A DNA stretch of 64,000 bases from Tubulanus polymorphus (lineage: Eukaryota > Animalia > Nemertea), in assembly GCF_964204645.1 (NCBI RefSeq), contig NC_134025.1:5084001-5148000 (forward strand), written 5' to 3'. The notes under the pieces are model-generated. The model had not been told where the DNA came from and ran no database searches. It saw nothing but the letters and a program-made list of their open reading frames with translations. The translations under genes were made by a program, and so were the position numbers. Below are positions 23,749 through 53,100 of the stretch, piece by piece; the stretch's first letter is position 1, and every line of letters begins with the position of its first letter.

Positions 23749-26700
23749 TTACATTAGACCAGGATTAAGCTGTAGTTCATCTTGATCTCCAGTCTGATCA
23801 TCATCTTCATAATTCAAATCACTGGCCTCCATTAACTTTCTCATCATGCCCATGATCGTTTCGTTTTGCTCAGTGAGGTTCTTCAGTCGAAGGCGCATTT
23901 TTCCAATGTCTTTCTGAATGACTTCTTGTTGTTCTTCGATTCTTTCAATGTCATCCTAAATAATAAATAGGTTAATTTTCATATTACTACAATGACTATT
24001 TTCATATCATGATACATGATGAAAGACATTGGAACATAAATGTTCGATGAGAAGCCACCATAGAGAAAATGTTTGTATTGATTATCTAGTTCTGACACTC
24101 CAGATTCCAACTCACCAGTTCTGGATTAAGAGCCTGAGCTATAGTGGATGCTGATAATGTGCTTTCCCAATTCATAAATTTTCTCACAGCCCCCATTCTT
24201 TTGTTCGGTCGAATCGTTTCGCACTTGCGTATAAACTTCCGTCTCAGAAATTGTGGCAAGATGCCTTCAACTTCAAGAGCCAATTCAACCTAGAGAATAT
24301 TAACACATGAAGTTCATCAATACAGAGATACTGAACTAAAATATTTTTCTAATGTGAAGAAAATAAGAAGCTGTACCTGCATTGCTAATCTCTTAAGGAC
24401 AGCCTGTTCTTGTACAGCTTTGATGTCATCTACAGCCAAACCAACCTACAACATTTAGAATATACTATTAACGCAACCATAAACTCATTAATATTTCAAC
24501 ATTAAGCCAGCTCTTTAAACCACTTAAAATCAACTTGTCAATCATAAATATTACAATATTGAGAAGTAAGATTTTTTGTATACAAATAATTGTATCTGAA
24601 TTATATAAAACAGTTACAACACTGAATGAGCGCTTCATCTGCTGAGATACAGAAAAGAACATCTGATATCACACATAAAATATCTGAATACATGTGTATG
24701 TTGCACGTGACGAGTGATCAGCATTCATTACAGCACGCTTATATTCATTTTGATTCACTAATAATTTCGATTTTGATCCTTCTTTCGAAACTCAATCCAA
24801 TCAAATTGAAGCATTCTGATTTCTCTTGATTACATACACATAAATAAATTGGAGTCATCCCTATATCATCATATACACAATATTGATATTAAAGTCATAT
24901 TTTTCCTTCACCTCCAATTTGTGTATCTTTTGATTTTAAACCCCTTCATCCTAATGTATACGTAATGTATGGATGAACCTAATCATGAATTCTAGGAGCA
25001 TTTATCGATAAAGCTTTAATCAGACGAAAACATCTCGAGGTAAAATCAGAGGATGCTGTTAGGAATTGAATCTATTCGGAAAATCATTAAGACGCATGAT
25101 CCAAAAAAATAACACCCTGGGTCTGACATTACACAGGCAGGAAATTGGCCAAATGGACCTATCTAAATGCAATATTCGGGGGATTAGTGAGGAATCAAAG
25201 ATCTATTATGGGAAGAATGTAGAAAAGAAACAAGTTCTCCTACTCGAATGCAAACATAAATTAAACTAGGTATTCTACATTTTTAGTTAAAACAAAAACA
25301 ACAACGAACATTTTAATGTAGATACATTAATACATATATGAGTAAAGAGTGATTAATTCGAGTGAAACAACAATTGGCAAAGAGTGAAGGACGAAGGACT
25401 CTATAGGACAGTAGTGCGCCGAGATTGTTATAAATTACCAGCAAGTTCATCGTGATGATTGACATCATGATGACAAATGTATAGAATAGGATATAGGACA
25501 TGGTCTCATAGAACACCATTGAGACATAGGTAGCTTCGGATCTCGGGTACATAGTCGTAAACAAATCGTCGTACTCAAATTCACCGATCATCATTACGGT
25601 CGTCTTAATGAGCGAAAAGTCGAATCGTCGAAACGACACCTGAAACATATACCGATCGCAACGCGTTAGTTTCAACAGTTTCAACATTATCTAACCACTA
25701 CTTACCAGTAAATTCATTATAATGATCGACATGACGATGAGGAAGCCAACGAATAATATATACATGGTAATCGGGTAAAAATGGTTTCCCGCGTATGAAC
25801 CATCGAGCGTATGAAACACGCCTTCATATTCCATTTCACCGATCATCATCACCATCGTCTTCACTAATGTTTTACCGAATGAATTAAACGTCACCTGCAA
25901 TATTCGCCCGTCAAACAACACTGCATATACATGTATATAATACAACACATGACTGCACAGACCGATGGAGTAACAATTATCAATGCCGGTATTATACCTT
26001 ATTATCATTTACATTATTCCTTACTTATTAAAGCTCATTATTATTACTATTTATCATTAAATTCTTTTTCAAGGGGCCTGAACGTCCTAGTGATCATACA
26101 GCCTTTATGGCTCTATTCAGGCCCCCAATCATCAAACTTGTGCATTAATACAAGCCCTTTATAATGTCACTGTTGGGAACAATGAAAAACATGGCAATAA
26201 AATGAAGCCATCATGATCAAGAATGGTATTTTCATTGAATATGACTTAGATTGAGCAAATCTGTTCTCTGTAAATGTTGGTGTCAAATGAGCAGTGGCAT
26301 TAACAAAGATAGCGTTATAAAGCCATGGACATTGACTGGTATCGTTTTATAGTCAATTACTGTGTATGAATGATTGAATTACATAATCTTTGAATTAGGC
26401 ATGAATCAAAACCAGCCGAGACCTTAACAATACATTGATAGGCTATCGTGTCAGTGTACAGTCACTTGTTACAATTCACAATTTGTCCGTTTTTTACGAT
26501 GGGACAGATATTATACAAACCTGATTTTGTAACAGCATGTAAAACGCGAATGCGAACGCCAATATGAACAGAACGAACACGACGAAGAAACGAAGAAATG
26601 TACGGAAAACATCCGTAAACATCACCACGTAGATACCAAAACGCGGAACTTTACGAATGAATAACACAAGATCGATCCACGCTAAAAATATACTCGCTGC

Positions 26701-29700
26701 TCCAACTTGCCACTGCCATGCCTAATGAGAGAAAACTACATATCAGAACAATGTTTTCCCGAAGGTGACTTTTAGAATATAGTTGAAATGCTAAATAAAC
26801 TACTAGCTCTGGAGACTTTTATATTTTTCATTATAATTGTGGGATATTCTACATACTATCTTCACAACAAGGATGTAATGTTTCATCAATGGTTATACAT
26901 ATCAGAACATCGGCATGGTCGTTCAAATGACCAGTAAATGGAGGAATTTCTTACCTCTCTGATGCCGATTTCACTTTGACAATCAGTAAAGTCCATCACT
27001 AGTAAAATTGCAGTGACATACATCACCCATTCAATGAAATTCTCCATTGTGAGGTAATGCAGTTTTGACTGATATATTTGGAACAGCTGAAAAATAATTG
27101 AAGACGCTCATGTACAAACTGCTATGTTATTCTTCAAAATCATAACCCTAAATTTTACATACAAAGAATTAGCAATCAAAGTTCGTATACGTTTTTGAGA
27201 AGAGCAAAATCTGAATAAATGTCAATCGTATTGAAATATTTACCTCTCGCAGTAGATTGAAAGCCGTCAATGAAATTATGACCCATTTCGATATTTTTAA
27301 GATCAACTTCCCAGTTTCATCCAACAATTCAGTGTAACCATTTGCCCTAACATCCTCACAACCAGTACAATTCCTATAGTAAGAGATAAAAGATACTTAA
27401 CTTGTAGCCATCGGATTGAAAGGATTTAGAACAATGCGAAATTATTCAAAGATTTTACGTACATTGTAGATTTGCAGTAGGCAAATGGAGGAAATGCGAC
27501 CATTGTATACGTGGTAAGAAACGTCAAAAATATGACATAAAAACTGAGATTCCCGTAGTAAACATAACGACCAAAGCTATTCCACTTGTGACGCAATAGT
27601 GAAGTAACCAACGGATGCATCAGTAAATCTTCACGATTGGACTGCACCTGAATAAAAATGCACCTGATATTAAGTAACATGTATATTTCTAACGAGTACC
27701 GGGCATCTTTTCCTGATCATTTACCATTATCATCAATGGATGATTTTTCTTAATAAGAGTTGAGTCCGCTGAATATGGTTTAACGTCTTCTTTCAGACGA
27801 AATTCTTCATCATAGATATCGCCTGAATAAAAAAATCAATATCACTTACTTACTAATTAACATTTACAAATACAAATTTACAAATCACAAAACCAGGATC
27901 CTTTATGCAAACCTGGGTCAGTTCCTGATTCGCTTTGTGGAATTTCCTTCCAGTATGAATACATGTCATCCAGAAATTCATAGTTGAATGTGATTTTGTA
28001 CTTCGGATGTTCAGCATTCATTGAATTAGATGACGTACACTTCATGAAAACTTTCTCAGCCACATCTGAAATCAGGTCGATCAAGTGTTACACCGATCCA
28101 CTTGAGAACTGGGTTTTTCTCAAACAAGACTATGAAAAACAAGTGTATGAATTATAAATACCTGGCATCTTCTTGATGAGTTTCCTCATGGGAGTATTCC
28201 TCCTACCAGAGGAGGGATCTGAAGTTTCATTTCGTAATGCTTCCTCCCAGCGGTCACTTTCACAAATAACAGTAGCTACATCCCTGAAATAAAAAATGTC
28301 ACCAGTAAAGAATATGACTTTGATGTCGATTTTCATGTGTGAGTGCTCCCCACGGGAATGTGGTAAAACCTATTACCTGAAGTTATTGTCAATAGCTAAG
28401 TCGAGACAATTGTTACCATCACTATCACGCTGCTCCACTGAAGCGTTCCATGCGAGCAACAATTTAACCATATCAGCATGACCTCTAGATGATGCCAAAT
28501 GAAGGGGTGTGGTCTATAATAACAAAACACAGAATCATTTTCATTATGATTTAACACTGAGTATTTAGTGATTTTAGCCAAGTAATGCGTTGTACATGCG
28601 GTTACACCCAAAATATACTTTAGCTACAACTTAAGTGAAACAGAAATCACGGAATCTTGAAGTAATCAAACCATGCATGAATCAAAAACGTATAATAAAC
28701 AGTTCTTGTCAGAGAAAAGGATTGAACTATGGTATCTAATAGAAAATTATCAACACAGTTTATATTCTAAGGGAAACTTTGAAGATGAACACACGTTTTT
28801 CTCACTTTCATAGAGTAATTCATGTTAGATTACATTACTATATCAATATACAGCTGGTCATAGTCAAAATTAGAGACACACTACAAGTGTGTTTTTACTC
28901 AAATACATGTACTTCTGAAATATATGCTACTCAAATGTGGTAATTAATGCTAATTAACTTTCAAATTGCATACATAGAGAATGGGTTAAAATTATACAGC
29001 TCAAAGAACACGATCAAATAAATAATTCTACAGAGATAAATCAACATTTCCATTCGAGATCATTCTTCGATCAGATAGGGCACCAATCAGTGGTTCAATT
29101 TGAAATTGGAAGCAAATGATTTCTAAAGCACGATGGAAATGTTATAACATAAGAAACTCACCATACACGAGGGACAACAATAGATTTTACAAATAGATCT
29201 TTTATACATTCTACCGATACCTTAGACTTATCCATAGGGTCGACAGGACTGTCATTATCAAGTAAACGACGAGCTGTCTTAACCCAACCTTTTGCGGCTG
29301 CGCAATCGAGTGGTGTCCACAGATTACAATTCCTGTCAGCAAGATTATAGCAAAGTTAAATAGCGCTAACTACGTAATAAGATATCAAAGCACAGATACT
29401 GTCACCAAAAGAGAAGATTGTGAATAAGAATCCTCCCAACTCGGCACTCATGATGTTGGGTGTCTAATTTTCAGCTCCCTTTGAAAGTGTTTACCGGTAG
29501 TTTTAACTACATGTTAGCCTTTTCGACACCAAACACCTCTAACACCATTTACAGTATGAATATAATAACGGTATCACAGTCACCACAACTACCTGGTACG
29601 TATATATTGACAGGCAAATAGTTTAGATTTGATGCTTCTCGGATATATGATTATAGATAGAATCCTTTGAAAGTGATACTATACAGAAATCCATACATAA

Positions 29701-32700
29701 TTTAGGCAAATGATTGCCATCTTGGTGAAAAGAATATAATATATGCCCAAATACGAAACAAAAGTTAAGACTACCTTCGATTTATCAAGAGGGTCAACGG
29801 GACAGTCGTGGTTCAATAATGCTTTAGCAACGTTCATTGAACCATTGGCAGCTGCACAATCCAATGGAGTCCATAAAGAACAATTCCTAAGCAAAAGTTG
29901 TATCACTGAATATCATTGTTATTCTACCAGATTTTAACAAAATCGATTCCTATATAAATGATGTGTACCTGACCTATAGAAACATTTAAGGGCCTGATTT
30001 TACGAATTCACTCAGTGGAATATATATTCATATTAAACATCTTATAAGATGAACTTTTATATGACTAAAGTTGCAGTGACTTTTCTTCATGGGGGTGACA
30101 AAGAATACCACGAAATATCCCATATCTGTGCTAAGTGTGTAATAATCTTTTGTGCAAATAAATGTTCAAATCAATCAAAGTGTATATGTTCTAAATATGT
30201 TAGTGGCATTTAATTGTTACTTTGCTTCGATTAGTTCAATCAACAAGCCGCGCTACCAACAGCAGTCAACATTAAATCATAAACCAATCGATCAGATTGA
30301 TAGTTCAATAAATCAATCAGTTATTGGTGGATATTGTGTTAATTGGTTAAATGTAAATGTATAATGGTGTAGTACGCGTTGTATACCTTGGATTTGTCTA
30401 GAGGATCAACAGGACAGTCGTTGTCCAGTAAAACCTGCGCGCATTTCAGTGACCCATTAGCCGCTGAACAATCAAGCGGGGTCCACAAACTGCAGTTCCT
30501 GGTAGCAACGAAAGTGATTTTTGTGTATAATTACATTGTTCAATAAACATACCCATGCTATCAAGATGTATTTTCGTACATGATACTAAGTTCAATTCGT
30601 CATTTATTCTCCTCAAGTGGTCGAGGTAGCAAAGTGATCGAATCATTAGCCGCGGTGATTCAATACATATTCCATATGAGCTGGAAATAATTCAGGCCAT
30701 GCTGATCACGGCGATACTCTACATACCTGGCTTCAATATCAGCTCCCATTTCTATCAGTTCAGCCGCGACTTTAGCATGACCCGCTAGAGCAGCAAGATG
30801 AAGAGCGGTATTCGAATCTTCATCTTCATCATTGACAATCATTTTATTTCTTCTCACCAACTCCCTTACAACTCTAAAACATCAAGCAACTCATTAAATA
30901 TTTCAACTCCTAAAGACTACAAAAATACGATGATATTGATATTTTTTTGGATAAATTCAATAGTAACTCATTATGTAAACTTACTTTGTTCGGCCATATT
31001 TAGCACCGAGATGAAGTGGAGTTTGCTCTTCCTCATTTTTAGCATCCAGCTGAGCTCCATGATCGAGCAGGCTCTAAATACGTGGATATGTTTAAATCAG
31101 TTGTATTTACAAGTGTTTTGGACATAATAGTGCGCTTTGAATTGAGTGGAAAATGCCAAAATCTACCTTAACTATGGCTAGATAACCTTTCATGGCTGCG
31201 ATATGTAGAGGAGAATTATCATATCGATCGCTAGAGTCAATCAAACCATACTGAGTTGCTTTTGGATGATTTGCTAGAACCTAAAATATAACAAAAGAGT
31301 CTAAATTACTCTTTTCTGTGGCATAGAAATCTTATACAAGTATGTACACATAAAACCAGCATAGTCTAGAATTCTAACTGAAATTACCTCTAGAGCCTCA
31401 ATGTTGTCTTCCTCAGCGGCCCAGTAAAGAGCAGTTTTATCGTTTTTGTCCATAGCTCTAATATCTGCACCACGTTTCAGTAGGGCTTGTTCCGTTTCAG
31501 CATGACCATAACAAGCAGCGATTAGAAGTGGAGTGAAATTGTCTCGATCTCTTCGTTCAATCTTAGCACCCCTACGAAAAAACCAAAACTTTTCTACTAA
31601 TGTTTCTGAGTTATTTTACTAACTGGCGTACACGATGTGTACTTGGTTCAACATAAACTTACTTGTCCAATAAGTACTCAACAACCTTTGCGTGGTTATA
31701 CTTGGCTGCCTGATGTATTGGTGCGGCCTGTTGTTGATTGAGGGCATCAATTCTAGGATTATGATCGCAAAGAAGTTTCACAATTTCCAAATCTCCTGAC
31801 TGCGCTGCTAAGTGTAAAGCAGTGCTGTAGTTTTTCCTATGTCCATTTACATCAGCGCCTAGAAATTATGATACAGTCACAATTTAAGATTAAATCGACA
31901 TAGAGATATTAAAGATTTTCAATTACCGGGTAAGTTTTACCTTTCTCAATCAAAAGTCTAGCAACTTCATAGTTTCCATTTTCAACAGCTAAATGTAAAG
32001 GTGAACTTTGATCGATATCTTGGTCTGTCACCATCTAATGATAAAAGAGATGAGTTAAAATATTCAAATATCAATAGGTATGATGGCAAAATATATCAAC
32101 AATTTATTGGATTGTCTTAAAATCCTTCTTGAATATATTTCTGAGAATATCAATAACGATCTTTAAGTCTCTTACTTGTGATATTGTCACCCAACCATCA
32201 AGCTTTTCACCAGCATCAAACAACAATTTACACATTTCGACATTTCCTTCCATAGCGGCGAGATGAAGAGGGGTTGATAGCTCTTCATCAACGCAGCGTA
32301 ATTTAGTACCTGCTTCTATAAGCATACGACAAATTTCTAGATGATTGTGGGTAGCCACGAGATGCAATGCTGTCATATTCGTCTTGTCTACAGCCTATAA
32401 ATATGATTCAACAATTTCAAAAGTGCATTTCATCAAATAAGGACATGATTTCAACTGTAAAATTTTCATTTCAAATTGTGTCACGGTAGGGTAAGTTTTT
32501 GGCTCTATATTCATTCATAATTGATTCACCCATTCCGAGTCTACTGGGATTATGGATACGTTTAGAAAATTGAATAATTGTTCATTTTTTGACTCGTGAT
32601 ATCTAAAACAGACAATGCTTTACCTCTATCTGAATTTCAGGACAAAGCAGCAAATCGCGGGCAGCCACTTCATTTCCCCTCATGGCGCTGTAATGAAGGG

Positions 32701-35700
32701 GTGTCAAACCATAGATATCCCGACAATTCGGATCAGATCCATGTGATATGAGGTATTCAATGACGCTAGGCTGCTCGTCGACATCCTTTTCAGCAGTTCC
32801 CTCTTCATTTTCATTCGGAGTGACATCTCCGTTAGGCTAGATAAATTGGAAAGAATTCATAAAACCGAAACTGCAAGAATGGGTTAAATTGAAGTGACTA
32901 CATGCATTCGGGTGATGTTTACAACATTAATCAATAGTACCGGCCATTACTGAGGAAAATTGGGGAAAATTTGATCTAGAAATTGATTGACACCTTGAAG
33001 ATTATCTAATCAACTGGTTATTAGAAATTGACAACGGTATAACTCTATATTCACTCTCATAAAGGTACTATTTATGCAGTATACAGTGACGTGTTTTTGT
33101 GACCATTCAATATCAGTGACAATGATATATTACGATCAATATTTGGAAAACAGCATCGCGATGCAAAAACCGTATCACGAAATAACTTCATCAATGTTCA
33201 GCTAAAACAGCACTAGTGTTTGCTCACTGAGCAGCTGAATATAGGGTAGATTGTATCCCATAAGTGATAAGATCAGTTCTATGTATTGCCAACTTTCAAG
33301 CAGGGTTCTTTTTACAGGGGTTAGTCTGACTGGTTTCTATTTTTTACCAATTTAATCTCCGGCACTCTGAGGAAAGAATGTTATATCAACAAGTGGCTGA
33401 TTCATTGAGATTTCTCATCCATGTGATATGAAATAATATCCTGGGTGGATATAGATGATAATTATTGATATAACTAGATTGCAATGACTGGGTGTGGTTG
33501 AATTGTGCATGTTGACTGTTTTAAGTTGATCTATACAAATATGAAGTACCTAGTACTCAAACATTTCACAGCTGAAGGTATTATATCTCAGTATACAAGC
33601 TCCCACGTGAATCTGATACAATTGTGAATACACATAGAATGGTACATCAGCAGCAAAGCCAGAGAGGGCTATCGGTTTGAACTAGCAAATCAAGCTTGGT
33701 ACATGTATTTCAAAGAACAGCAAAAGAAAAGTGACAAAGAACAGAAATATTGATTCCTATAAATAAGTTTAGGATACAGCCGGAGGATTCCCACTAGACG
33801 CATGAGTTAGATTTCTTGCGAAACCTTTTATGTGCAGATTATATGAACAGACATAATACATTATGAATATAGCCATGTATATTCTGTTTCCACGGCAAGT
33901 TTAAAGTGGAAACTCACAAGTTTAATATAGGCCCTAGAATTCTTCTAACATCTCTAGTGAGAATCTGCATTAAAATTTGAAGTTTAACAATTCAAATTGT
34001 GAAGCAACATTTAGAGCAATTCACACACATTTCAAACTCAAAGAATTCCACTGAAATTTCTGATGCCTCTCAGTAAAAGTGTTTCTATAGTTACTGTAAA
34101 TATCCAATTTCAAGTCATTGATTAGAATCACCTATGCACATATGACAGGAATGAAACTATAATTCTATTTCAGCTCGAAGCGATGAAGACATCGAAATTA
34201 CGAAACACGAATGACCATGTTTAAAACTGAATTTTTTTGAAACAGAAACCTTGACAGATGCTAAGTGGAAAAGCAAAATCAATGTGTGCTATACATGAGG
34301 GTCAAAATATTATCCATACTTGTGCAATTCCACTGTCCGTACTATCAGCAATCTGAAAACATAATTCATTTGTTCCATGCAAAATACGGTTCATAAAAAA
34401 TTCTCAAACATTACAGCCAATGAAATATACACTATCATGTCCTCATTATCAATTTATTATCCCGAATATACCAGAAGGGGTGAAATTATTGGCTGAACTA
34501 CAAACTCATCTTAGAAATTGTGTGTCTCATTGATTTCTTCTGGATCTGTCCGAAGGATTATATTGCTGGATTAAAGATTACACGATAGGGGCAAACGCAC
34601 CTTCACCAAATTACTGCAGATGATTTTTCAAATTTTATATTAGAAATAAGACAAACATCCAAGAATGTAAGTATATAAGCTATATACGCGAGGGCAATCA
34701 TAATCATTGATGTCATTTCATTTCTATCTGACCAGTTTACATTCTTTGACGCACAGATATATAGATGAGTGCTATGACTCATTACAGTACGTTCACAAAT
34801 AAATAAGAGGTTTTGAACTGACGAGTACTATGACTTATTAGAGTACGTTTACGGTGTATTAGAAACTAATTCGAGAAGTTTCGTAGGTGTATTGATTAAT
34901 ATCTGGTAAACGTTTGAAATATTATGAAATTAACTCAAAACCATTTCACTTACGTTCATACAATAGCATGTAATTGATTGTGAGAGATGAAATTATATCA
35001 ATAAACACAATTTCAGTATTATAATAAACAAATCAGCAAAGAACTTAAAGGAATTAATAGTTAATGTAATCAAGTAAAAAAAACAATACCAGTAGATTGG
35101 TTTGGTTTCAAGAAAAGGTTTAAGCATTACAAAGCAAGGCAATCTTTCCTCACTGGAAATAAATCTGAAAACTCCCACTGCAATTGATTTATTGTTAAGA
35201 TGTTGTGTAATTTTCAGGGGCAAGGAGAGCAACCAAAATTCTTATGAAACCGAACCCAACATGGCAGTAAGAAAACAAGACATACACACACATACATATA
35301 TCATACATACTGGAGCATATAAGGTACTACTTGTAGACCTGTGGTGTAACTTCTGCAATAGATTTGACAATAACACAAATACGTAAAATATGTATGTGAT
35401 GACCATACATTTCCATAAGGTGAAAAACTAGACCCTTGGCAATACAGTTATTCACTATGCAATTAGTATACAAACGTCAGGTTTTAGTGTTTTAGTTTCT
35501 ATGCAGAAAATGGTTGAATTGCTCACGAAAATAGTAAGTAATACTCTTATCCAAACAAATTTACGAATTACGAATCATCATTTTTGCGACTATTTCAGAG
35601 TTTGAATTTCAACAAAGAGCAACTAAAACATGATCTTTTTTATCAGCTTCAGTGAAAATCCATATGACAAATTGACAAAATCAGCAGCAATTACAGTACA

Positions 35701-36738
35701 CGAACATAGAATACAAGAATGTGAGGTCGTAACTAATCTTACCTTCGAGTCGGGGATGTTTTCATCGACGGACCTAGATCGGTTGATTTTTTGTTTTTTA
35801 TATCGAGCTCCGTAATGAAGAGGAGTCGCGTCATCTTCACCGCGATCGTTTACATCTAAATGAATTAAAAACGTAGTTCACGATTACAGAATATTTGTAA
35901 GAAAATACCGAATATTCTGCCAGGTTTTTAAGGATGATTCACTTACTCGCTCCTCTTTCAACCAGAAGTTTAACAATGAGATAATGATCGTAACGAGCCG
36001 CGTAATGAAGGGCGCTTAGTTTATTTTCATCATGCCAATTAATCCTTTTCTTGAGCTGACCCTTCGACATTTGATCGAGAAGTCGGCGTAATGAGTCAAC
36101 ATTGCCATCTCTAGCGCACTGAAATGAATTTTTTTATATCGGTTTAGAATAGGCCTAATTTGAAATCGGAAATTCAGCTCCAAGCAAGCTCATGAAAGTG
36201 TAATAAGGTTAATTGAGTAAATAAGTGGGTAAGTATACTAATATATGAGTTATTCACTCAATTAACCTGTTCTTCTCCGTTTATACCCCTGTTTTCAGTC
36301 AATATCTCACACCTGATGATGATCTCTAGGGTGAGATCGAAACGTCTTGTATTTTATATATTTTAGATTTTCTGAATTCGATTTTAAAATCATCTTAATT
36401 TGTGGGTTTTTATCTTATTATCCATTCACCACGTTAGAGAGTGGTTATTGTTCTAAGTATAATTGATATTTTACCTGATGTAGGGTTAATCCAGCAATGG
36501 ATTCAGTGCTTTCAACTCTCTTTAATCCAGGAGATGATACTAAAGTAGTTAATTCTGTTGCACCGGGTAGGGCACCCGCGATATGACGCTGTTCATTATC
36601 ATCGTCCGCGGGGTCAACAAACCCAACCGATCCAGCTACACGTGACATGTCGTATTGTCGAGTTTTACCTCCAAGGAATTTTGAAAATCGGAAGTTCAGC
36701 TCCACCGTATTTCTGGAATCTAAGATATCATCAGCCAT
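23749..36738 (-). CDS. TRPA1: TRPA1-family ankyrin-repeat cation channel, multi-exon, with mutually exclusive exon clusters
   Basis: Many ankyrin exons (SALHYAA, TPLHY, TALHLAA), linker LLMHPLVTSLLRHKW, S4-S5 LFIRKVPRFGIYVVMF, pore MMIGExEY, S6/TRP-like MNLLVGLAVDDIKAVQEQAVLKRLAMQ, C-terminal coiled coil; first coding exon 36475-36738, last 23749-23955; exact TRPA subclade unresolved. Confidence 0.92.
25439..25639 (-). CDS. TRPA alternative pore+S6 exon P2 (201 nt)
   Basis: TTTCAG|VSFRRFDFSLIKTTVMMIGEFEYDDLF...IMMSIITMNLL|GTAATT, phase 0-0. Confidence 0.9.
25706..25894 (-). CDS. TRPA alternative pore+S6 exon P1 (189 nt)
   Basis: TTGCAG|VTFNSFGKTLVKTMVMMIGEMEYEGVF...IVMSIIIMNLL|GTAAGT, phase 0-0. 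Confidence 0.9.
29221..29332 (-). CDS. TRPA alternative ankyrin exon C (112 nt)
   Basis: CAG|G-NCNLWTPLDCAAAKGWVKTARRLLDNDSPVDPMDKSK|GTATCG. Confidence 0.9.
29775..29886 (-). CDS. TRPA alternative ankyrin exon B (112 nt)
   Basis: TAG|G-NCSLWTPLDCAAANGSMNVAKALLNHDCPVDPLDKSK|GTAGTC. Confidence 0.9.
30387..30498 (-). CDS. TRPA alternative ankyrin exon A (112 nt)
   Basis: CAG|G-NCSLWTPLDCSAANGSLKCAQVLLDNDCPVDPLDKSK|GTATAC. Confidence 0.9.
34320..34352 (-). CDS. Candidate 33-nt TRPA microexon (IADSTDSGIAQ)
   Basis: GTTTTCAG acceptor, GTATGG donor, phase 0-0 like the flanking exons, no stop. Confidence 0.55.
36309..36350 (+). ncRNA. Minimal type I hammerhead-like motif, probably a Penelope-like element remnant
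   Basis: CTGATGA-T-GATCTC-TAGGGT-GAGATC-GAAA-CG-TC; stem II perfect, stem I partly mismatched. Confidence 0.5.
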
Positions 36739-39064: not shown

Positions 39065-43200
<4,136 letters not shown>

Positions 43201-44227: not shown

Positions 44228-45251
44228 GTGAGGGACCCGATTCAACACACTGTCCCGTGAGAAGACCCGATTCAACTTACTGTCCCGTGAGAGGACCCGA
44301 TTTCAAATACTGTCCCGTGAGAGGACCCGATTCAACACACTGTCCCGTGAGAGGGCCCGATTTTAAATACTGTCCCGTGGGAGGACTCGATTCAACACAC
44401 TGTCCCGTGAGAGGACCTGATTCAACACACTGTCCCGTGAGAGGACCCGATTTCAAATAATGTCCCGCGAGAGGGCCCGATTCAACACACTGTCCCGTGA
44501 GAGGACCCGATTTTAAATACTGTCCCGTGAGAGGACCCGGTTCAACACACTGTTCCGTGAGAGGGCCCGATTTTAAATACTGTCCCGTGAGAGGATCCGA
44601 TTTTGAATACTGTCCCGTGATAGGGCCCGGTTTCAAATAATGTCCCGTGAGAGGGCCCGATTCAACTCACTGTCCCGTGAGAGGGCCCGATTTTAAATAC
44701 TGTCCCGTGAGAGGACCCGATTTTGAATACTGTCCCGTGAGAGGGCCCAGTTTCAAATAATGTCCCGTGAGAGGGCCCGATTCAACACACTGTCCCGTGA
44801 GAGGACCCGATTTTAAATACTGTCCCGCGAAGGAACCCGATTTTAAATACTGTCCCGCGAGAGGGCCCGATTCAACACACTGTCCCGTGAGAGGACCCGG
44901 TTTCAAATAATGTCCCGCGAGAGGGCCCGTATCAACACACTGTCCCGTGAGAGGACCCGATTTTAAATACTGTCCCGTGAGAAGACCCGAATCAACTTGC
45001 TGTCCCGTGAGAGGGCCCGGTTTCAAATAATGTCCCGTGAGAGGGCCCGGTTTCAAATAATGTCCCGTGAGAGGGCCCGATTCAACACACTGTCCCGTGA
45101 GAGGACCCGATTTCTAATACTGTCCCGTGAGAGGACCCGAATCAACTTGCTGTCCCATGAGAGGACCCGGTTTCAAATAATGTCCCGTGAGAGGACCCGA
45201 TTCAACACACTGTCCCGTGAGAGGACCCGATTCAACACACTGTCCCGTGAG
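44228..45251 (+). repeat. Left 30-bp tandem array (~34 units), TGTCCCGTGAGAGGACCCGA plus variable 10-mer
   Basis: Exact 30-nt period visible from 44251 to 45251. Confidence 0.97.
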
Positions 45252-45682
45252 CCAAAAGTTGTTGAATGAGTATCTTTATGACAAATAGTGAATATTGTTG
45301 GAATATTTCTCTATTTTGATTTATAGGTGTCCGGCGAACGACAGGACCAAGACGATGACGTGGGCGATGATATTTCAAACGTGAGTCAAAAGTTGTTGAA
45401 TAAATATCTTTATGACAAATAGTGAATACTGGTGGAATATTTCTCTATTTTGATTTATAGGTATCCGGCGAACGACAGGACCAAGACGACGACGTGGACG
45501 ATGATATTTCAAACGTGAGTCAAAAGTTGTTGAACGAAAAGTTGTTGAATAAATATCTTTATGACAAATAGTGAATATTGTTGGAATATTTCTCTATTTT
45601 GATTTATAGGTGTCCGGCGAACGACAGGACCAAGACGATGACGTGGGCGATGATATTTCAAACGTGAGCCAAAAGTTGTTGC
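45247..45682 (+). repeat. Three tandem copies of a ~135-150-bp intron plus 54-nt exon unit
   Basis: Exons 45327-45380, 45461-45514, 45610-45663 each encode VSGERQDQDDDV(G/D)DDISN between TTTATAG and GTGAG. Confidence 0.9.
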
Positions 45683-47941
45683 ATGAAAACTTCAATGTAC
45701 AATATGAAAAAATGATCAAATATTGAAAAAAAATATATTTTACTGTATGAAATTACAGGTGTCCGCAGAAGACGGCTGGCTTAGATTGTATGACGACGTC
45801 TTTGATATACAAAATCTCACCGAGGCAGAACAGATTAAAATCAGTATGAAGTTATCACTCAAAGAGTCACATCTCCGTCAGAGTGCAGAGAAAAGGCTTC
45901 AATCTCTAGTTTCCGAATCCAATCTGAATATTGTGTCGGTCGCGGATGACGGAAGCTGCTTTTTTTGCAGCTGTTGTCGAACAATTGAGGCGAGAAAACG
46001 TTGACATAACAGCACATGAGCTACGATTAATGGCTGTTTCATACCTTTCTGAAAATAGATATTGCGCTGTAAGTAAATTAAAAACCCATTGATATATCAA
46101 GACAGACTACAATAAATATTATATACACATATTATGGTTTGCTTCGCTGGATGGGGCTGATAAGGCCGACTTTCTGGAGTCTCATCTGACATGGCCATTA
46201 TATCTTAATAAAATGAGACAAAGAACCACCTGGGCCGATGCTTTAGTTGTCCGTGCCACAGCTGACTGTTAAGGGAGACCAATGGTACTATATACCAGTT
46301 CAGAGCAGTCAAACATCAATATGATAGATCCTGTCGAATGTAAAAATGCTGAACCCATCTTACTAGGGCATATTCAAGATATTCACTACGTTGCCCTAGT
46401 AAAAAGGAGCTATATCCCATGACGACGCGTGTCAGTCGAGAGTGTCAGAGGGTACCCTTGCGGCCTAACCCACGGAAGACGGTAAGTTGATAGTATATGC
46501 CACCCCTTCTGACTATTTGGCAAAAATAATACAGCCATCAGAAGCCTTGTTCATGTCAGCTAAGGGTTAATTAATTGAATTTCATAGCGTCAAAGTGACA
46601 GTTACCTCTGAGAACCGCAGAAAAAAAGAAGACGGGTTGTCGATAAAGGAATCTACTGCGTTTGCAAGAAACCAGATGATGGAAGGTAAAGCTTAATTAT
46701 ATCATATAAGATCAGGCTGTTGTTTTAAGATTCAGTCGTCATTGTCGAAAAAATCTTTTACCTTCACTTTCACTTTCACTTACCTTCACTTTCAAAATTT
46801 TCTGCATTTGCATTTTGGGAAGTATTTGCAATGCGATGAATGTAGTGGGTGGTTCCATCCGAAATGTATTGGTCTGAACGAAGATACTGTGGAGAAAATT
46901 GACTATAGATGCGAAACGTGTTTTTAGGTAAGCGATGAACTAAAAAAATATTTTGATCAAATAAGCTATGCCTATATCCTTGCTATGCTATCCTTTTATA
47001 CAATGTGATTGCATTCTTTTTATATAGGTACCTAAACGATTCATTAAGAGTCAGGTATGGAATCCGATACATAATGCATACGAAACTCTTGCCATTTTCC
47101 ACTAGAAAGCAATGAATCAAATGTTTTTCTTTTCGCAGCTTGGCGCGGTTGAATATCACGTTTCTCGTATAATTAATGCCGAGATAAAAGACAAGAGGTA
47201 AATATTGTACCTTAGTAGAAATCTCGCCAGTTTGTTGAATTTTTCAAACTTTTGTTGATAATATACAATCTTTGGTTTCAGAAGGCCGGAATTCAGGAGA
47301 CATTTGGACTTGATTAACAAAGACCATGAAAGAGCCGAAAAAGAACTGAAAGGATATGGCTATGGGCTTTTAACTGATGAGGTAAGCATTGATAACAGAA
47401 AATATGAAATGCGTACAAATAAATGAGCTTTCTTTCGATCATCGTAATATTCAATATTTTAAAGGGCCATGCATATCTCTATAGTGTAATGAAATCATAC
47501 GTCAGCCCTACCTTTGCGGACAAATCGTAAGTATATACATGAATCAGACGTGAAGTTTTTTTACTATATTTCGAAATGATAATCAATTCATTTCAATTAC
47601 AGGAAACCATATTCAACTCGCTACATGACCCTCCGACAACATCATTCTAAAATGCTGAATTCAGTTTTTAAAGAAGGAAAGACGTAAGTTCATTCTCATC
47701 TTCTATTGCTAATTTCTTAAAAGAATTTCATCCATGTTATATTCATTGTATTAAAATATTTTTCAGGTCAGCAGTAACGTATGTTAATGACGTTTTGCTT
47801 AAAGAGGCCATTTGTTTATTGGTGTCAACCTACCGAAATATCACATACAACGAGGCTGATATTCTTGGAAGAAGAACAGAGGCCAAAAAACTAAAAGATG
47901 TACAACGACTAATGTCCAAATACTTCTTGCCAGATTATTGA
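45327..47941 (+). pseudogene. 5'-truncated spliced transposon gene: acidic repeats, UIM-like helix, OTU cysteine protease, PHD finger, unknown C-terminal domain
   Basis: VADDGSCFF(frameshift in T7 at 45960-45966)AAVVEQL...HELRLMAVSYL; YLNKMRQRTTWAD..(TAA 46270-46272)..ILLGHIQDIHYVAL; IYCVCKKPDDG / LQCDECSGWFHPKCIGL...YRCETC; further small GT-AG exons ending in TGA at 47939-47941. Confidence 0.82.
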
Positions 47942-48864: not shown

Positions 48865-50150
48865 GTCCTCTCACGGGACAGTGTGTTGAACCGAGTCCTC
48901 TCACGTGACATTCTTTGAAACCAGGTCCTCTCACGGAACAGTAAGTTGATTCGGGTCCTCTCACGGGACAGTGTGTTGAATCGGGTCCTCTCACGGGACA
49001 GTATGTTGAATCGGGTCCTCTCACGGGACATTATTTAAAAGCGGGCCCTCTCACGGGACAGTGTGTTGAATCGGGTCCTCTCACGGGACAGAGTGTTGAA
49101 TCGGGCCCTCTCACGTGACATTATTTGAAACCAGGTCCTCTCACGGGACAGTGTGTTGAACCGAGTCCTCTCACGTGACATTCTTTGAAACCAGGTCCTC
49201 TCACGGGACAGTAAGTTGATTCGGGTCCTCTCACGTGACAGTGTGTTGAATCGGGTCCTCTCACGGGACAGTATGTTGAATCGGGTCCTCTCACGGGACA
49301 GTATTTAAAATAGGGTCCACTTACGGGACAGTGTGTTGAATCGGGTCCTCTCACGGGACAGTGTGTTGAACCGGGTCCTCTCACGGGACAGTATTTAAAA
49401 TCGGGTTCCTTCGCGGGACAGTATTTAAAATAGGGTCCTCTCACGGGACAGTGTGTTGATTCGGGTCCTCTCACGGGACAGTGTGTTGAATCGGGTCCTC
49501 TCACGGGACAGTATTTAAAATAGGGTCCTCTAACGGGACAGTATTTAAAATCGGGTCCTCTCACGGGACAGTGTGTTGAACCGGGTCCTCTCACGTGACA
49601 TTATTTGAAACCAGGTCCTCTCACGGAACAGTAAGTTGATCCGGGTCCTCTCACGGGACATTATTTGAAACCAGGTCCTCTCACGGGACAGTGTGTTGAA
49701 TCGGGTCCTCTCACGGGACAGTATTTAAAATCGGGTTCCTTCACGGGACAGTATTTAAAATAGGGTCGTCTAACGGGACAGTATTCAAAATCGGGTCCTC
49801 TCACGGAACAGTGTGTTTAATCGGGTCCTCTCACGTGACATTATTTGAAACCAGGTCCTCTCACGGAACAGTAAGTTGATCCGGGTCCTCTCACGGGACA
49901 TTATTTGAAACCAGGTCCTCTCACGGGACAGTGTGTTGAATCGGGTCCTCTCACGGGACAGTATTTAAAATCGGGTTCCTTCGCGGGACAGTATTTAAAA
50001 TAGGGTCGTCTAACGGGACAGTATTCAAAATCGGGTCCTCTCACGGAACAGTGTGTTTAATCGGGTCCTCTCACGGGACAGTATTTAAAATCGGCTCCTC
50101 TCACGGGACATTGTGTTGAATCGGGACCTCTCACGGGACGGTAACTTGAA
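48865..50150 (-). repeat. Right 30-bp tandem array (~43 units), inverted relative to the left array
   Basis: TCGGGTCCTCTCACGGGACA recurs every 30 nt; the TCACGGGAC(A/G) core runs from 48871 to 50140. Confidence 0.97.
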
Positions 50151-53100
50151 TCGCGGGTTCCGTTGTAAAATCCTGCGTGAAAAACGTGCATTCATATCCC
50201 CTATTGTCCCCCTGGCCCTGCAGTAAATTAGAATTTTTCGGTAGGCCCTCATGTATTTATAAATGAAATCAAAATGGAAAATGTAATAATTACAATCGAT
50301 AGTTGAATTTATTTATTCATAATCGTTATAGGCAGAATACATAAGAATATATAAGGGACTCGAAACCGCTAGCATTGGAATCGACGTTTCATGTAAGAAT
50401 TCTACATTTGTCCCGTGAGAGGACCCATGTCCCGTCACAGGCCCGGGTCCTCTCACGGGACGCTGCAGTTAAACTCATATGGAATTTTTGTATTAACTTC
50501 ACAACTTACTTCCGGGTTTCTAGAAAATACAGATACGCTGGCCAAAATGATCAAAAATGTGAGAGTTATTTCAGAATTAAGTCTCTTGTGACCACCCTAT
50601 ATTTAATGTCAGGACTAAAACACATTAGAAAATTGTTAAAGTTACTGATGATTTAGAGGGATTTACTACTAGGACTACATTTCCTTGTTTTTTCATTTTC
50701 TAGTAACCGACATGGTTGGTACAAAGTACGGTTCCGGACTGACTGCGGCCCGGCCTGTTGGTGACGAGACACTGACCGGGCGGGCCGGGTTTTATACAGA
50801 AGCTCACTTACACCATTCAGTCGGATTTATCTCATGATGTCCAACCACCACCACCATTAATTAGACAACTGATGGAGTTTTGAAGAAAATCATATGTAAT
50901 GCCCACATGAATGATGCTAAGCTCTAACCTCACAAACGTACAGCAAGCGACAATTAAATCGGAAGAATTTTATTCATATTTTCCCCTTTGTGAATCAAAT
51001 ATATCTTTTATTCATATATATGTATTATATACATCGCTAAATTACTGGTGACAATGATTTAAGTACAAGTGCACAATAAAATGCACTTGATTAGTACTGC
51101 TTTCAGTAAAATCTACCAAAAACCACTTAAATTCATCAAGAAGGAAAATTAATTCTATGAAGGTTATGCCCCTACAATTACATGTATCTTCAAGCTCAGT
51201 TTCAGTTATAAGAATACAATACGTTTGTAAAGTATTTTAGGTCATGGAGTTATTTCATCTTCCTGAGGATCCTTACCCCTAATCCTAGCCCTATCCACGG
51301 ACATATAAACTCTAGTTCTTATGTCCATGCTCTATCATAGAACAGCCTCATAGAACCACGGCCTATATGCACACTTTGGTAGTGACATTAACAGAGGAAC
51401 ATTAAGTGTTCATGTAAGTGATCTCTGGCCAATATTAATCTATTGTTGAAAAGCATTTTAGAGACTTCCATCTTTGTCATAAATATAGCTAATATTTAGC
51501 TAATACAAACTGATATCGAAGGTTTACCCTGTAAAGACCCATATCGCACTCAATACATAAGTATCATTTTGACAATATACCATTACTGGTAATCAAAAGT
51601 TGGATCAAATTCTTTTTTACACACCCTCAAAAACATTTACAACATTTTCACTGAAACTCAAACGATTGTCAGAGCCCCAAAATGTTTTATTACATAAATT
51701 ACATATTATTTCTTAAGGGGCTATTTGATACCATCCGAATAATAATTCGAAATCAGTAGCCTCATTCATAGAGCAGTGGCGTTGGAAGTGCAGCGACTGC
51801 GGGGGCGAAAGCCGCGGCAATAATTTACTGAATGGCGTTTTTTTTCCTTTGAATATCACGTTTTTGAAGAAATTAAGTAAATTCGTCGTGGCAATATTTA
51901 GAACCTGTTCAAAATCTGCATTAAGCCGCAGCAATCAAAAATTGCTTCCAACGCGCCTATAGAGTACAATCTACTAGAAAAAAACAACCTAGTTTCTATA
52001 TAGAGTATGGCGAGACTAGGATAGGAGAATCGTCAAAAGTAAATTAGTTTGAATATTGGTATATGTGGATTGATAGAAGATTTGTATTAATATCATCAAT
52101 GAATGAAAGTGGTATAGCATTCTATAAAAGAAATATGGGATTTCAATTGTTTTTATGCATCAAGTTAGGTTCAGTCAAATGATTCTTAGCGATAAAAATG
52201 GTGTAGACATATCAAAATACCAGGACGGATGTTGAAATGGACTGATATATCTCATAGATTGATTGAAGAAGTACTACATTATGACAATCAGAAAACAACA
52301 TGAATCATTTGAGTTAATCATATTTTGCTAAGGAAAGTAGTGTAGTAACCACCTCTGTTCGTTTTTTGTAAAATTCACATTACCAAAGTATTTTAGAGTA
52401 GATTGTTGGACTATTACCACTAACCATAGACAATAATACCGGGTATATATTTGGGTTCATATCTTACATGTATTGTAAATTCTAATAGTTGTAGAGGATT
52501 GTGGGAAGGCTGCACGTAGATAACTATATCTTCTGCATTGTTCAAGTAATTACCTATTTTGAGTATTCTAGCTACAAATAACATACAATCTAACTGTCCC
52601 TGCTCCACAAAATATATCATCACATGCCACACAATACTGAATAGATATTCCTATGTGGGCTAAACAATCAAACCCATATAATTTGAATCAAATCATTTGG
52701 GCACCAATCCAAATTTTAGTGTGACAGATGAAAATAAATTTTCCACAAGTTAAAACACACCGAGAATCCACAAGACATTTCGTGGGTCTCAACCAATCAA
52801 TTCAATGTGGGCTCAACTGTACAAACGATCCTGAATCACAACAATGCATATGCGACTAAAATAATCTGTAGCATTAGAATAAGCAAAACAAAATTATTAT
52901 GACATTTTTACAGTGATGAAAGAATTTTAAGCAAATTTATCCATCAATGTTGGGGACAGCCAAATACCATATTATCAATCACAGGCTCTTAGAATAGATT
53001 TGTTCATAGCTGATGACCTCTGATGAAATACAGCACACTGTTTGGGTTTAATCATCCATGCTGAAGTCATTGGCGATAATTTTCGAGAAAAGAACATGAG

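Follow-up and report, generated by a model that had tools for sequence, protein, structure and literature searches.

Three alternative exons for ankyrin repeat 14 in a putative basal-clade TRPA channel gene of the nemertean Tubulanus polymorphus

INTRODUCTION

Mutually exclusive exons in TRPA channel genes are known from insects. In Drosophila and Anopheles TrpA1, as passages of PMC11471635 describe, such exons serve the cytoplasmic N-terminal part of the channel at two sites in one gene (exon 1 A/B and exon 10a/10b), the pairs being sited at the N-terminal end and in the part that separates the ankyrin repeats from the membrane. Here we describe a TRPA-family gene of the nemertean Tubulanus polymorphus, located in a window of 64,000 nt (the whole stretch of DNA analysed; positions 5,084,001 to 5,148,000 of contig NC_134025.1, RefSeq assembly GCF_964204645.1). 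In this gene, a putative member of the basal TRPA clade, a triplet of exons replaces the whole of ankyrin repeat 14 (AR14). A second site carries two pore exons, and the presence of two alternative sites in one TRPA gene raises, here as in insect TrpA1, the question of their coupling.

Outside the TRPA family, exons 5a/5b (92 nt) of SCN-alpha genes are also duplicated ion-channel exons with a length not divisible by three, so that a transcript with both or neither is out of frame (passages of PMC12772994). According to the same passages, these exons form a pair, encode a part of the voltage sensor and are accompanied by a conserved intronic RNA structure, with little role for decay. The Tubulanus cluster, in contrast, has three exons, its intron pairing is not above that of shuffled sequences and a tandem joint is visible in it.

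The basal TRPA clade is described in passages of PMC5438368, PMC12980990 and PMC6451338. The Tubulanus gene resembles its members in grouping with cnidarian, placozoan, echinoderm and spiralian proteins and in having no equivalents of C621 and C665 of canonical TRPA1; it differs in its mutually exclusive ankyrin exons, which the cited passages do not report. Among channels of this clade, starfish TRPA basal did not react when exposed to cold, heat or TRPA1 agonists, though it may have failed to be expressed (PMC5438368); C. elegans TRPA-1 is insensitive to electrophiles and tied to touch and cold (PMC4843866), and TRPAbasal of Capitella is a proposed hypoxia sensor (PMC6451338), in each case as stated in passages of these papers.

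RESULTS

Three exons for one ankyrin repeat

The exon model, read by coordinates, encodes 1248 aa with AG/GT at all junctions. The coding span runs on the minus strand from the first in-frame ATG at 36738 to the stop codon at 23749; RefSeq places the start at 36648, and the 30 codons upstream of it are open from the in-frame ATG (36738-36649). The gene and the exons around the triplet are as follows.

23749..36738, minus strand: whole TRPA-family gene (exon model, RefSeq match, homology, structure model)
30727..30873, minus strand: constitutive exon 11, encoding repeat 13, phase 2 out; two Owenia proteins differ by a swap of the corresponding block
30387..30498, minus strand: alternative exon 12A, AR14 with flanking loops, 4 Cys; RefSeq isoform X2; exon 11-to-A joint seen
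29775..29886, minus strand: alternative exon 12B, 3 Cys; RefSeq isoform X3; 11-to-B and B-to-C joints seen in one contig
29221..29332, minus strand: alternative exon 12C with 2 Cys; basic and nearest of the three to the family form; in RefSeq isoforms X1 and X4-X7
28377..28513, minus strand: constitutive exon 13 (repeats 15-16), phase 0 in

Exons 12A, 12B and 12C (hereafter A, B and C) lie between exons 11 and 13, separated by introns of 500 nt (A-B) and 442 nt (B-C). Each is 112 nt long, AG/GT-flanked, and in phase 2 in and 0 out. The exon model and the flanks bear out a first-pass annotation of the sequence, which had described three paralogous exons of this length and phase; its cysteine counts (4, 3 and 2 in A, B and C) and its remark that C is more basic (Lys plus Arg 3, 3 and 6) are also correct. 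Any two of the exons share 74-81 of the 112 nt and 25-29 of the 37 aa, and match each other at E-values of 3e-19 to 8e-16, whereas their matches to the other ankyrin repeats of the gene are at 0.005 or weaker; no fourth copy was found within the window. The proportion of synonymous differences is near saturation (pS 0.78-0.97) and that of non-synonymous ones is low (pN 0.14-0.22), which marks the copies as old and as constrained at the protein level.

Eight inclusion patterns of the three exons were translated, and the full 1248-aa frame came only from the three patterns with a single exon. Omission of all three leads to a stop at aa 652, any pair to a stop at aa 653 or 671, and all three together to a stop at aa 671. 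Use as constitutive tandem repeats is thus ruled out, because the frame is lost with any two of the exons as well as with all three. The first-pass statement that exactly one exon must be used is therefore right for the full-length protein and wrong for splicing, in which a B-to-C joint exists.

RefSeq models and transcript contigs

Exon 20 of the model is 100% identical to the RefSeq Tubulanus protein 'TRPA member 1 homolog isoform X1', a member of a cluster of seven proteins (isoforms X1-X7, XP_074658298.1 to XP_074658348.1). All seven contain exactly one exon of the triplet: C in five (isoforms X1 and X4-X7), A in isoform X2 and B in isoform X3. The A, B and C isoforms are already annotated automatically in RefSeq; literature searches, with most subscription journals outside their coverage, found no paper on this Tubulanus gene.

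Assembled contigs from four runs (run X1-run X4; one study, at most two samples) cover the locus. Run X2 was taken as RNA because of its CT..AC joints, and run X1 behaves as DNA of another haplotype. Spliced contigs of run X2 confirm at least 15 joints of the exon model. At the triplet they contain an exon 11-to-A joint (contig depth 17.3) and, in a single 167-nt contig of depth 16.7, both an exon 11-to-B and a B-to-C joint. A contig of 1981 nt shows splicing all the way back from exon 20 to exon 13, beyond which it reads unspliced through the intron and into C. These contigs show that A can be skipped, that A and B both accept the exon 11 donor and that tandem joining occurs. No splice joint at the triplet was found in runs X3 and X4. 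The contigs contain neither an exon 11-to-C joint nor a joint of A, B or C to exon 13; a joint that they lack may still exist, and the RefSeq proteins, which are automatic models, have all of these joints. The first-pass view that all three exons serve as alternatives is supported by the RefSeq proteins with each of them and by contigs that join exon 11 directly to A and to B.

The C-13 intron (29220-28514), retained in the run X2 contig that is fully spliced downstream, is also covered in runs X3 and X4; it may be slowly spliced or detained.

Position of the segment in the channel

The segment encoded by the alternative exons aligns unambiguously to residues 510-546 of human TRPA1, that is, AR14 and its linker. 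In a structure model of isoform X7 (pLDDT 83.5; best fold match 7ykr, fly TRPA1, TM 0.65) the segment forms one helix-turn-helix repeat with loops, followed by two more repeats. The first-pass label 'membrane-proximal' is roughly right for this third-last repeat. In mouse TRPA1, residues 536-542 belong to AR14 and the AR14-15 loop, inside the AR10-15 primary module, and are exposed on maleimide activation (passages of PMC5940248); AR10-15 taken from fly or rattlesnake carries heat sensitivity with it (passages of PMC4843866).

Assignment to the TRPA clades

The protein belongs to the TRPA family, which is marked by a long N-terminal ankyrin array, a linker, a six-helix pore domain and a C-terminal coiled coil. 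Over its whole length it scores 404 bits to human and 371 bits to fly TRPA1, and the Trichoplax protein gives similar values. Its best 120 relatives are 45-63% identical to it, and those with species names are all from invertebrates, including Nematostella and Trichoplax. In a FastTree of 52 rows with midpoint rooting, from which the named basal members C. elegans TRPA-1, PpTRPA basal and CtTRPAbasal were absent, the gene falls in a group of 41 rows (SH 98) together with Nematostella and Trichoplax. Outside this group stands P0443 (590 bits to human TRPA1, 581 bits to fly TRPA1), the one canonical-like row and the only row with Cys at the 665 position; in a tree with this single canonical-like row, the gene does not group with canonical TRPA1.

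Of the three reactive linker cysteines of canonical TRPA1, one is kept: T710, C730 and D754 stand at the positions of what we take to be C621, C641 and C665 of human TRPA1. This numbering agrees with the mouse numbers in passages of PMC5940248. Among 119 homologs, the C621 position is Thr in 117, the C665 position is Asp in all 119 and the C641 position is Cys in 117. In composition the relatives agree with the basal clade, an invertebrate-only group with representatives among cnidarians, placozoans, echinoderms and spiralians. For the Asterias homologs (1384-1396 aa), length is the only point of agreement with PpTRPA basal (1398-1406 aa in passages of PMC5438368). Judged from sequence, the gene fits a basal-clade TRPA channel.

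Differences among A, B and C

The variant closest to a homolog is C alone in 87 of the 119 cases, A in four and B in four, the remaining cases being ties or gappy. A and B share K611N and W613S (isoform X1 numbering), and with them the loss of a conserved Lys-Gly-Trp turn; both substitutions map to the inter-helix turn of the model. At position 611, 90 of 119 homologs have Lys or Arg; position 613 is Trp, His, Phe or Tyr in 106 (Trp in 74) and Ser in one. The net charge is +1 for C, -2 for A and -1 for B. Counted against the Lineus ortholog, A and C have 8 and 2 changes, and B and C have 9 and 1. Differences among the three exons cluster at repeat positions 12-20, 23-24 and 31, while the residues of the hairpin and first helix are nearly invariant among them.

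Two cysteines are common to A, B and C; the variable ones are C616 (A only) and C625 (A and B). C616 corresponds to repeat position 17, hydrophobic in 92% of 487 repeats, and C625 to position 26, where 52% have Ala. Cys occurs at the 616 and 625 positions in 25 and 16 of the 119 homologs, respectively. Homologs have anywhere between 0 and 5 cysteines in the segment; the Lineus ortholog, for which one form is annotated, has four. C has probably lost C625, because Lineus and Owenia have it. On these sequence comparisons, the cysteine gradient looks like ordinary small-residue exchange.

Splice sites and intron structure

Splice sites were scored with a matrix built from the 20 constitutive exons of the gene. 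The acceptors of A, B and C scored -6.3, -3.3 and -1.7 (constitutive median about 5.8, with one of the 20 constitutive acceptors as low), and the donors 6.2, 4.3 and 2.8 (constitutive median about 8.5). All six intron pairs fold no better than shuffled sequences, with 6-14 of 15 controls being as strong, and the window contains no long intronic inverted repeat; a docking/selector cluster of the Dscam1 type, in which a single docking site pairs with selectors next to the exons, was rejected on both grounds. At 442-500 nt, the introns within the cluster exceed the lengths that would allow steric exclusion. An exon would instead be chosen through competition of its weak acceptor with those of the other two, with no docking/selector RNA structure involved.

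The B-to-C tandem product breaks the frame and allows no full-length protein; with its stop at aa 653, far upstream of the later junctions, it is a likely substrate of decay, and double inclusions would be removed by nonsense-mediated decay. Given the B-to-C joint, exclusivity is leaky; it is likely policed by decay.

Pore exons

The first-pass annotation had multiplied the triplet by two alternative pores to obtain at least 3x2=6 sensor/pore combinations. Both pore exons exist, and only the use of the first was seen, so that six combinations are possible rather than shown.

25706..25894, minus strand: pore/S6 exon 21A, 63 codons; the form seen in use, joined to exon 20 before it and exon 22 after it
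25439..25639, minus strand: pore/S6 exon 21B, 67 codons; intact; present in none of the seven RefSeq proteins

As both exons are in phase 0/0, their exclusivity is not imposed by the frame. Exon 21B is 49% identical to 21A, has good splice sites (scores of 7.4 and 8.1) and resembles the family as closely as 21A does, being the better match to 50 of 119 homologs (21A to 67). Exon 21A is present in all seven RefSeq proteins and in the listed contig joints; no use of 21B was seen in the seven RefSeq proteins or the at least 15 listed joints. The intron between 21A and 21B (66 nt) is the shortest of 27 introns and could exclude the pair sterically.

Other species

Block swaps between isoforms were searched for in 277 proteins (660 near-identical pairs; annotated isoforms only, at most 15 per cluster). 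Seven block groups were flagged: two are the Tubulanus triplet, one is from Owenia fusiformis, and the other four look like discrepancies between gene models in Nymphon, Physella and Mytilus or, in Bulinus, like a degenerate pore copy. No swap of repeat 14 in another species was found among these annotated isoforms. Over the compared span, the Owenia proteins CAH1799596.1 (P0005) and CAH1799595.1 (P0049) differ at 21 positions, and all of these lie within one 48-aa block. This block corresponds to exon 11 of Tubulanus (repeat 13, window positions 30873-30727) and adjoins repeat 14; it is likely an independent pair of mutually exclusive ankyrin exons.

In Lineus, P0009 and P0010 are sister paralogs, one of which resembles C (33/37), while the other groups weakly with A and B. 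A and B group with this second paralog at 90/83, as would follow from a duplication older than the Tubulanus/Lineus split, but a topology that unites the three exons is not rejected either (AU 0.22). It is possible that an ancestral exon pair was partitioned between the two Lineus genes.

The Bulinus truncatus models P0103 and P0131 are near-identical apart from 16 mismatches in a pore-region block, a duplicated or degenerate pore segment.

Other features of the gene and the window

The N-terminal region contains two optional micro-exons.

35311..35352, minus strand: optional 42-nt micro-exon, N-terminal insert; present in RefSeq isoforms X1-X4, absent from X5-X7
34320..34352, minus strand: optional 33-nt micro-exon, N-terminal insert; present in isoforms X1-X3 and X5, absent from X4, X6 and X7

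Both micro-exons are in phase 0, and all four combinations of them are annotated. Short-insert variation in the N-terminal region is seen among isoforms of Lineus, Owenia and Lingula as well. Within intron 1, at about 36280-36410, contigs of all four runs show very high depth and many loose ends, the mark of a short high-copy repeat element.

The upstream neighbour on the minus strand (about 39065-42970) has its last exon ending about 2.3 kb before the start of the channel gene; its exons resemble what we take to be cytosolic 5'-nucleotidase II. Elsewhere in the window, two arrays of a related 30-nt unit lie at 44228-45251 and 48865-50153 in opposite orientation, with several frames open, and 134-149-nt repeats with splice-like signals follow the first array at 45246-45740.

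DISCUSSION

We lean slightly towards the following reading. The locus is a TRPA gene that fits the basal clade, with three AR14 exons of which only one at a time suits the frame; doubles would be removed by decay, and the variants would differ in gating through the inter-helix turn and surface charge rather than through cysteines. Two old tandem duplications would have produced the cluster, with C keeping the family-type sequence and A and B sharing a derived one. K611N and W613S, together with the change of charge, may affect how a repeat of the gating module packs or how flexible it is. A swap of exons would then shift the opening threshold for the channel's own stimulus, for which the published candidates in the clade are mechanical, thermal and hypoxic.

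Several points weigh against this reading. RNA support comes from one sample of one study, and the RefSeq models are automatic, with their read support not seen by us. Among the contigs, which can serve as evidence of presence only, there is no exon 11-to-C joint and no joint of A, B or C to exon 13, and the 1981-nt contig of run X2 continues through the C-13 intron. For SCN exon 5a/5b, also of non-3n length, passages of PMC12772994 state that decay is not the main cause of exclusivity. The swap data for AR10-15 come from the other TRPA clade. Faster change of A and B reached p<0.05 in only one of 12 outgroup tests, and the absence of variants from the three exons of the second haplotype (0/336 nt vs 14/1877 nt) is not significant (P=0.10).

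A possible though unlikely explanation is that the three exons are near-equivalent. A and B would be minor tolerated forms, kept only since a misfolded subunit poisons the tetramer, or the cluster would be a splicing-and-decay valve on the amount of channel. The B-to-C joint and the unspliced C-13 intron in contigs, the weakness of all three acceptors and of the B and C donors, the presence of C in five of seven RefSeq models and the ordinary character of many of the A/B/C differences as ankyrin substitutions agree with it. A dispensable exon, however, would not be expected to survive as A and B have, intact through near-saturated silent sites; both also lack the Trp kept in 74 of 119 homologs, and a second lineage (Owenia) appears to have duplicated the adjacent repeat. 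It seems highly improbable that the swap alters a binding surface for a partner or ligand (localisation or scaffolding) and not gating. Ankyrin repeats are general interaction modules (passages of PMC4843866). The clustering of differences at a few repeat positions and the three fewer basic residues of A and B would suit such a surface, but no partner for it is known. The hairpin and first helix are the usual ankyrin binding face, and it is their residues that hardly vary among A, B and C.

The first-pass annotation had tied the graded cysteines to graded sensitivity to electrophiles and oxidants, which we consider very unlikely. The counts are real, the C641 equivalent is kept here and in nearly all homologs, and C625, present in A and B, falls no more than about two residues from human C540, within the part of the channel that N-methylmaleimide activation exposes in mouse TRPA1 (passages of PMC5940248); an insect mutually exclusive exon alters sensitivity to the same compound (passages of PMC11471635). 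Against this, neither C621 nor C665 has an equivalent here or across the clade, Thr and Asp standing in their place. The two variable cysteines occupy core-type ankyrin positions, their burial being taken from the general repeat consensus rather than computed. Cysteines at these positions are common among homologs, and the segment has four in the single annotated form of Lineus. The electrophile insensitivity of C. elegans TRPA-1 and the unresponsiveness of starfish TRPA basal to TRPA1 agonists, subject to the expression caveat given above, point the same way. Graded electrophile sensing is thus not supported for this channel.

Beyond the favoured reading of AR14 exons that differ in gating, AR13-14 could be a recurrent tuning knob of basal TRPA channels, arrived at independently by a nemertean triplet and an annelid pair, with the nemertean one coupled to an unannotated second pore to give up to six functionally distinct sensors from the locus; we regard this extension as quite doubtful.

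The novelty of the locus is limited by the insect precedents for mutually exclusive exons in TRPA genes and by the presence of the three isoforms in RefSeq. Basal TRPA channels are, nevertheless, widespread in invertebrates, and most are without a known stimulus. Three natural isoforms that differ in only 8-12 residues of one repeat are a ready-made experiment on the role of this repeat in gating, and the apparent switch of a neighbouring repeat in a second phylum hints at selection for variation in this part of the channel.

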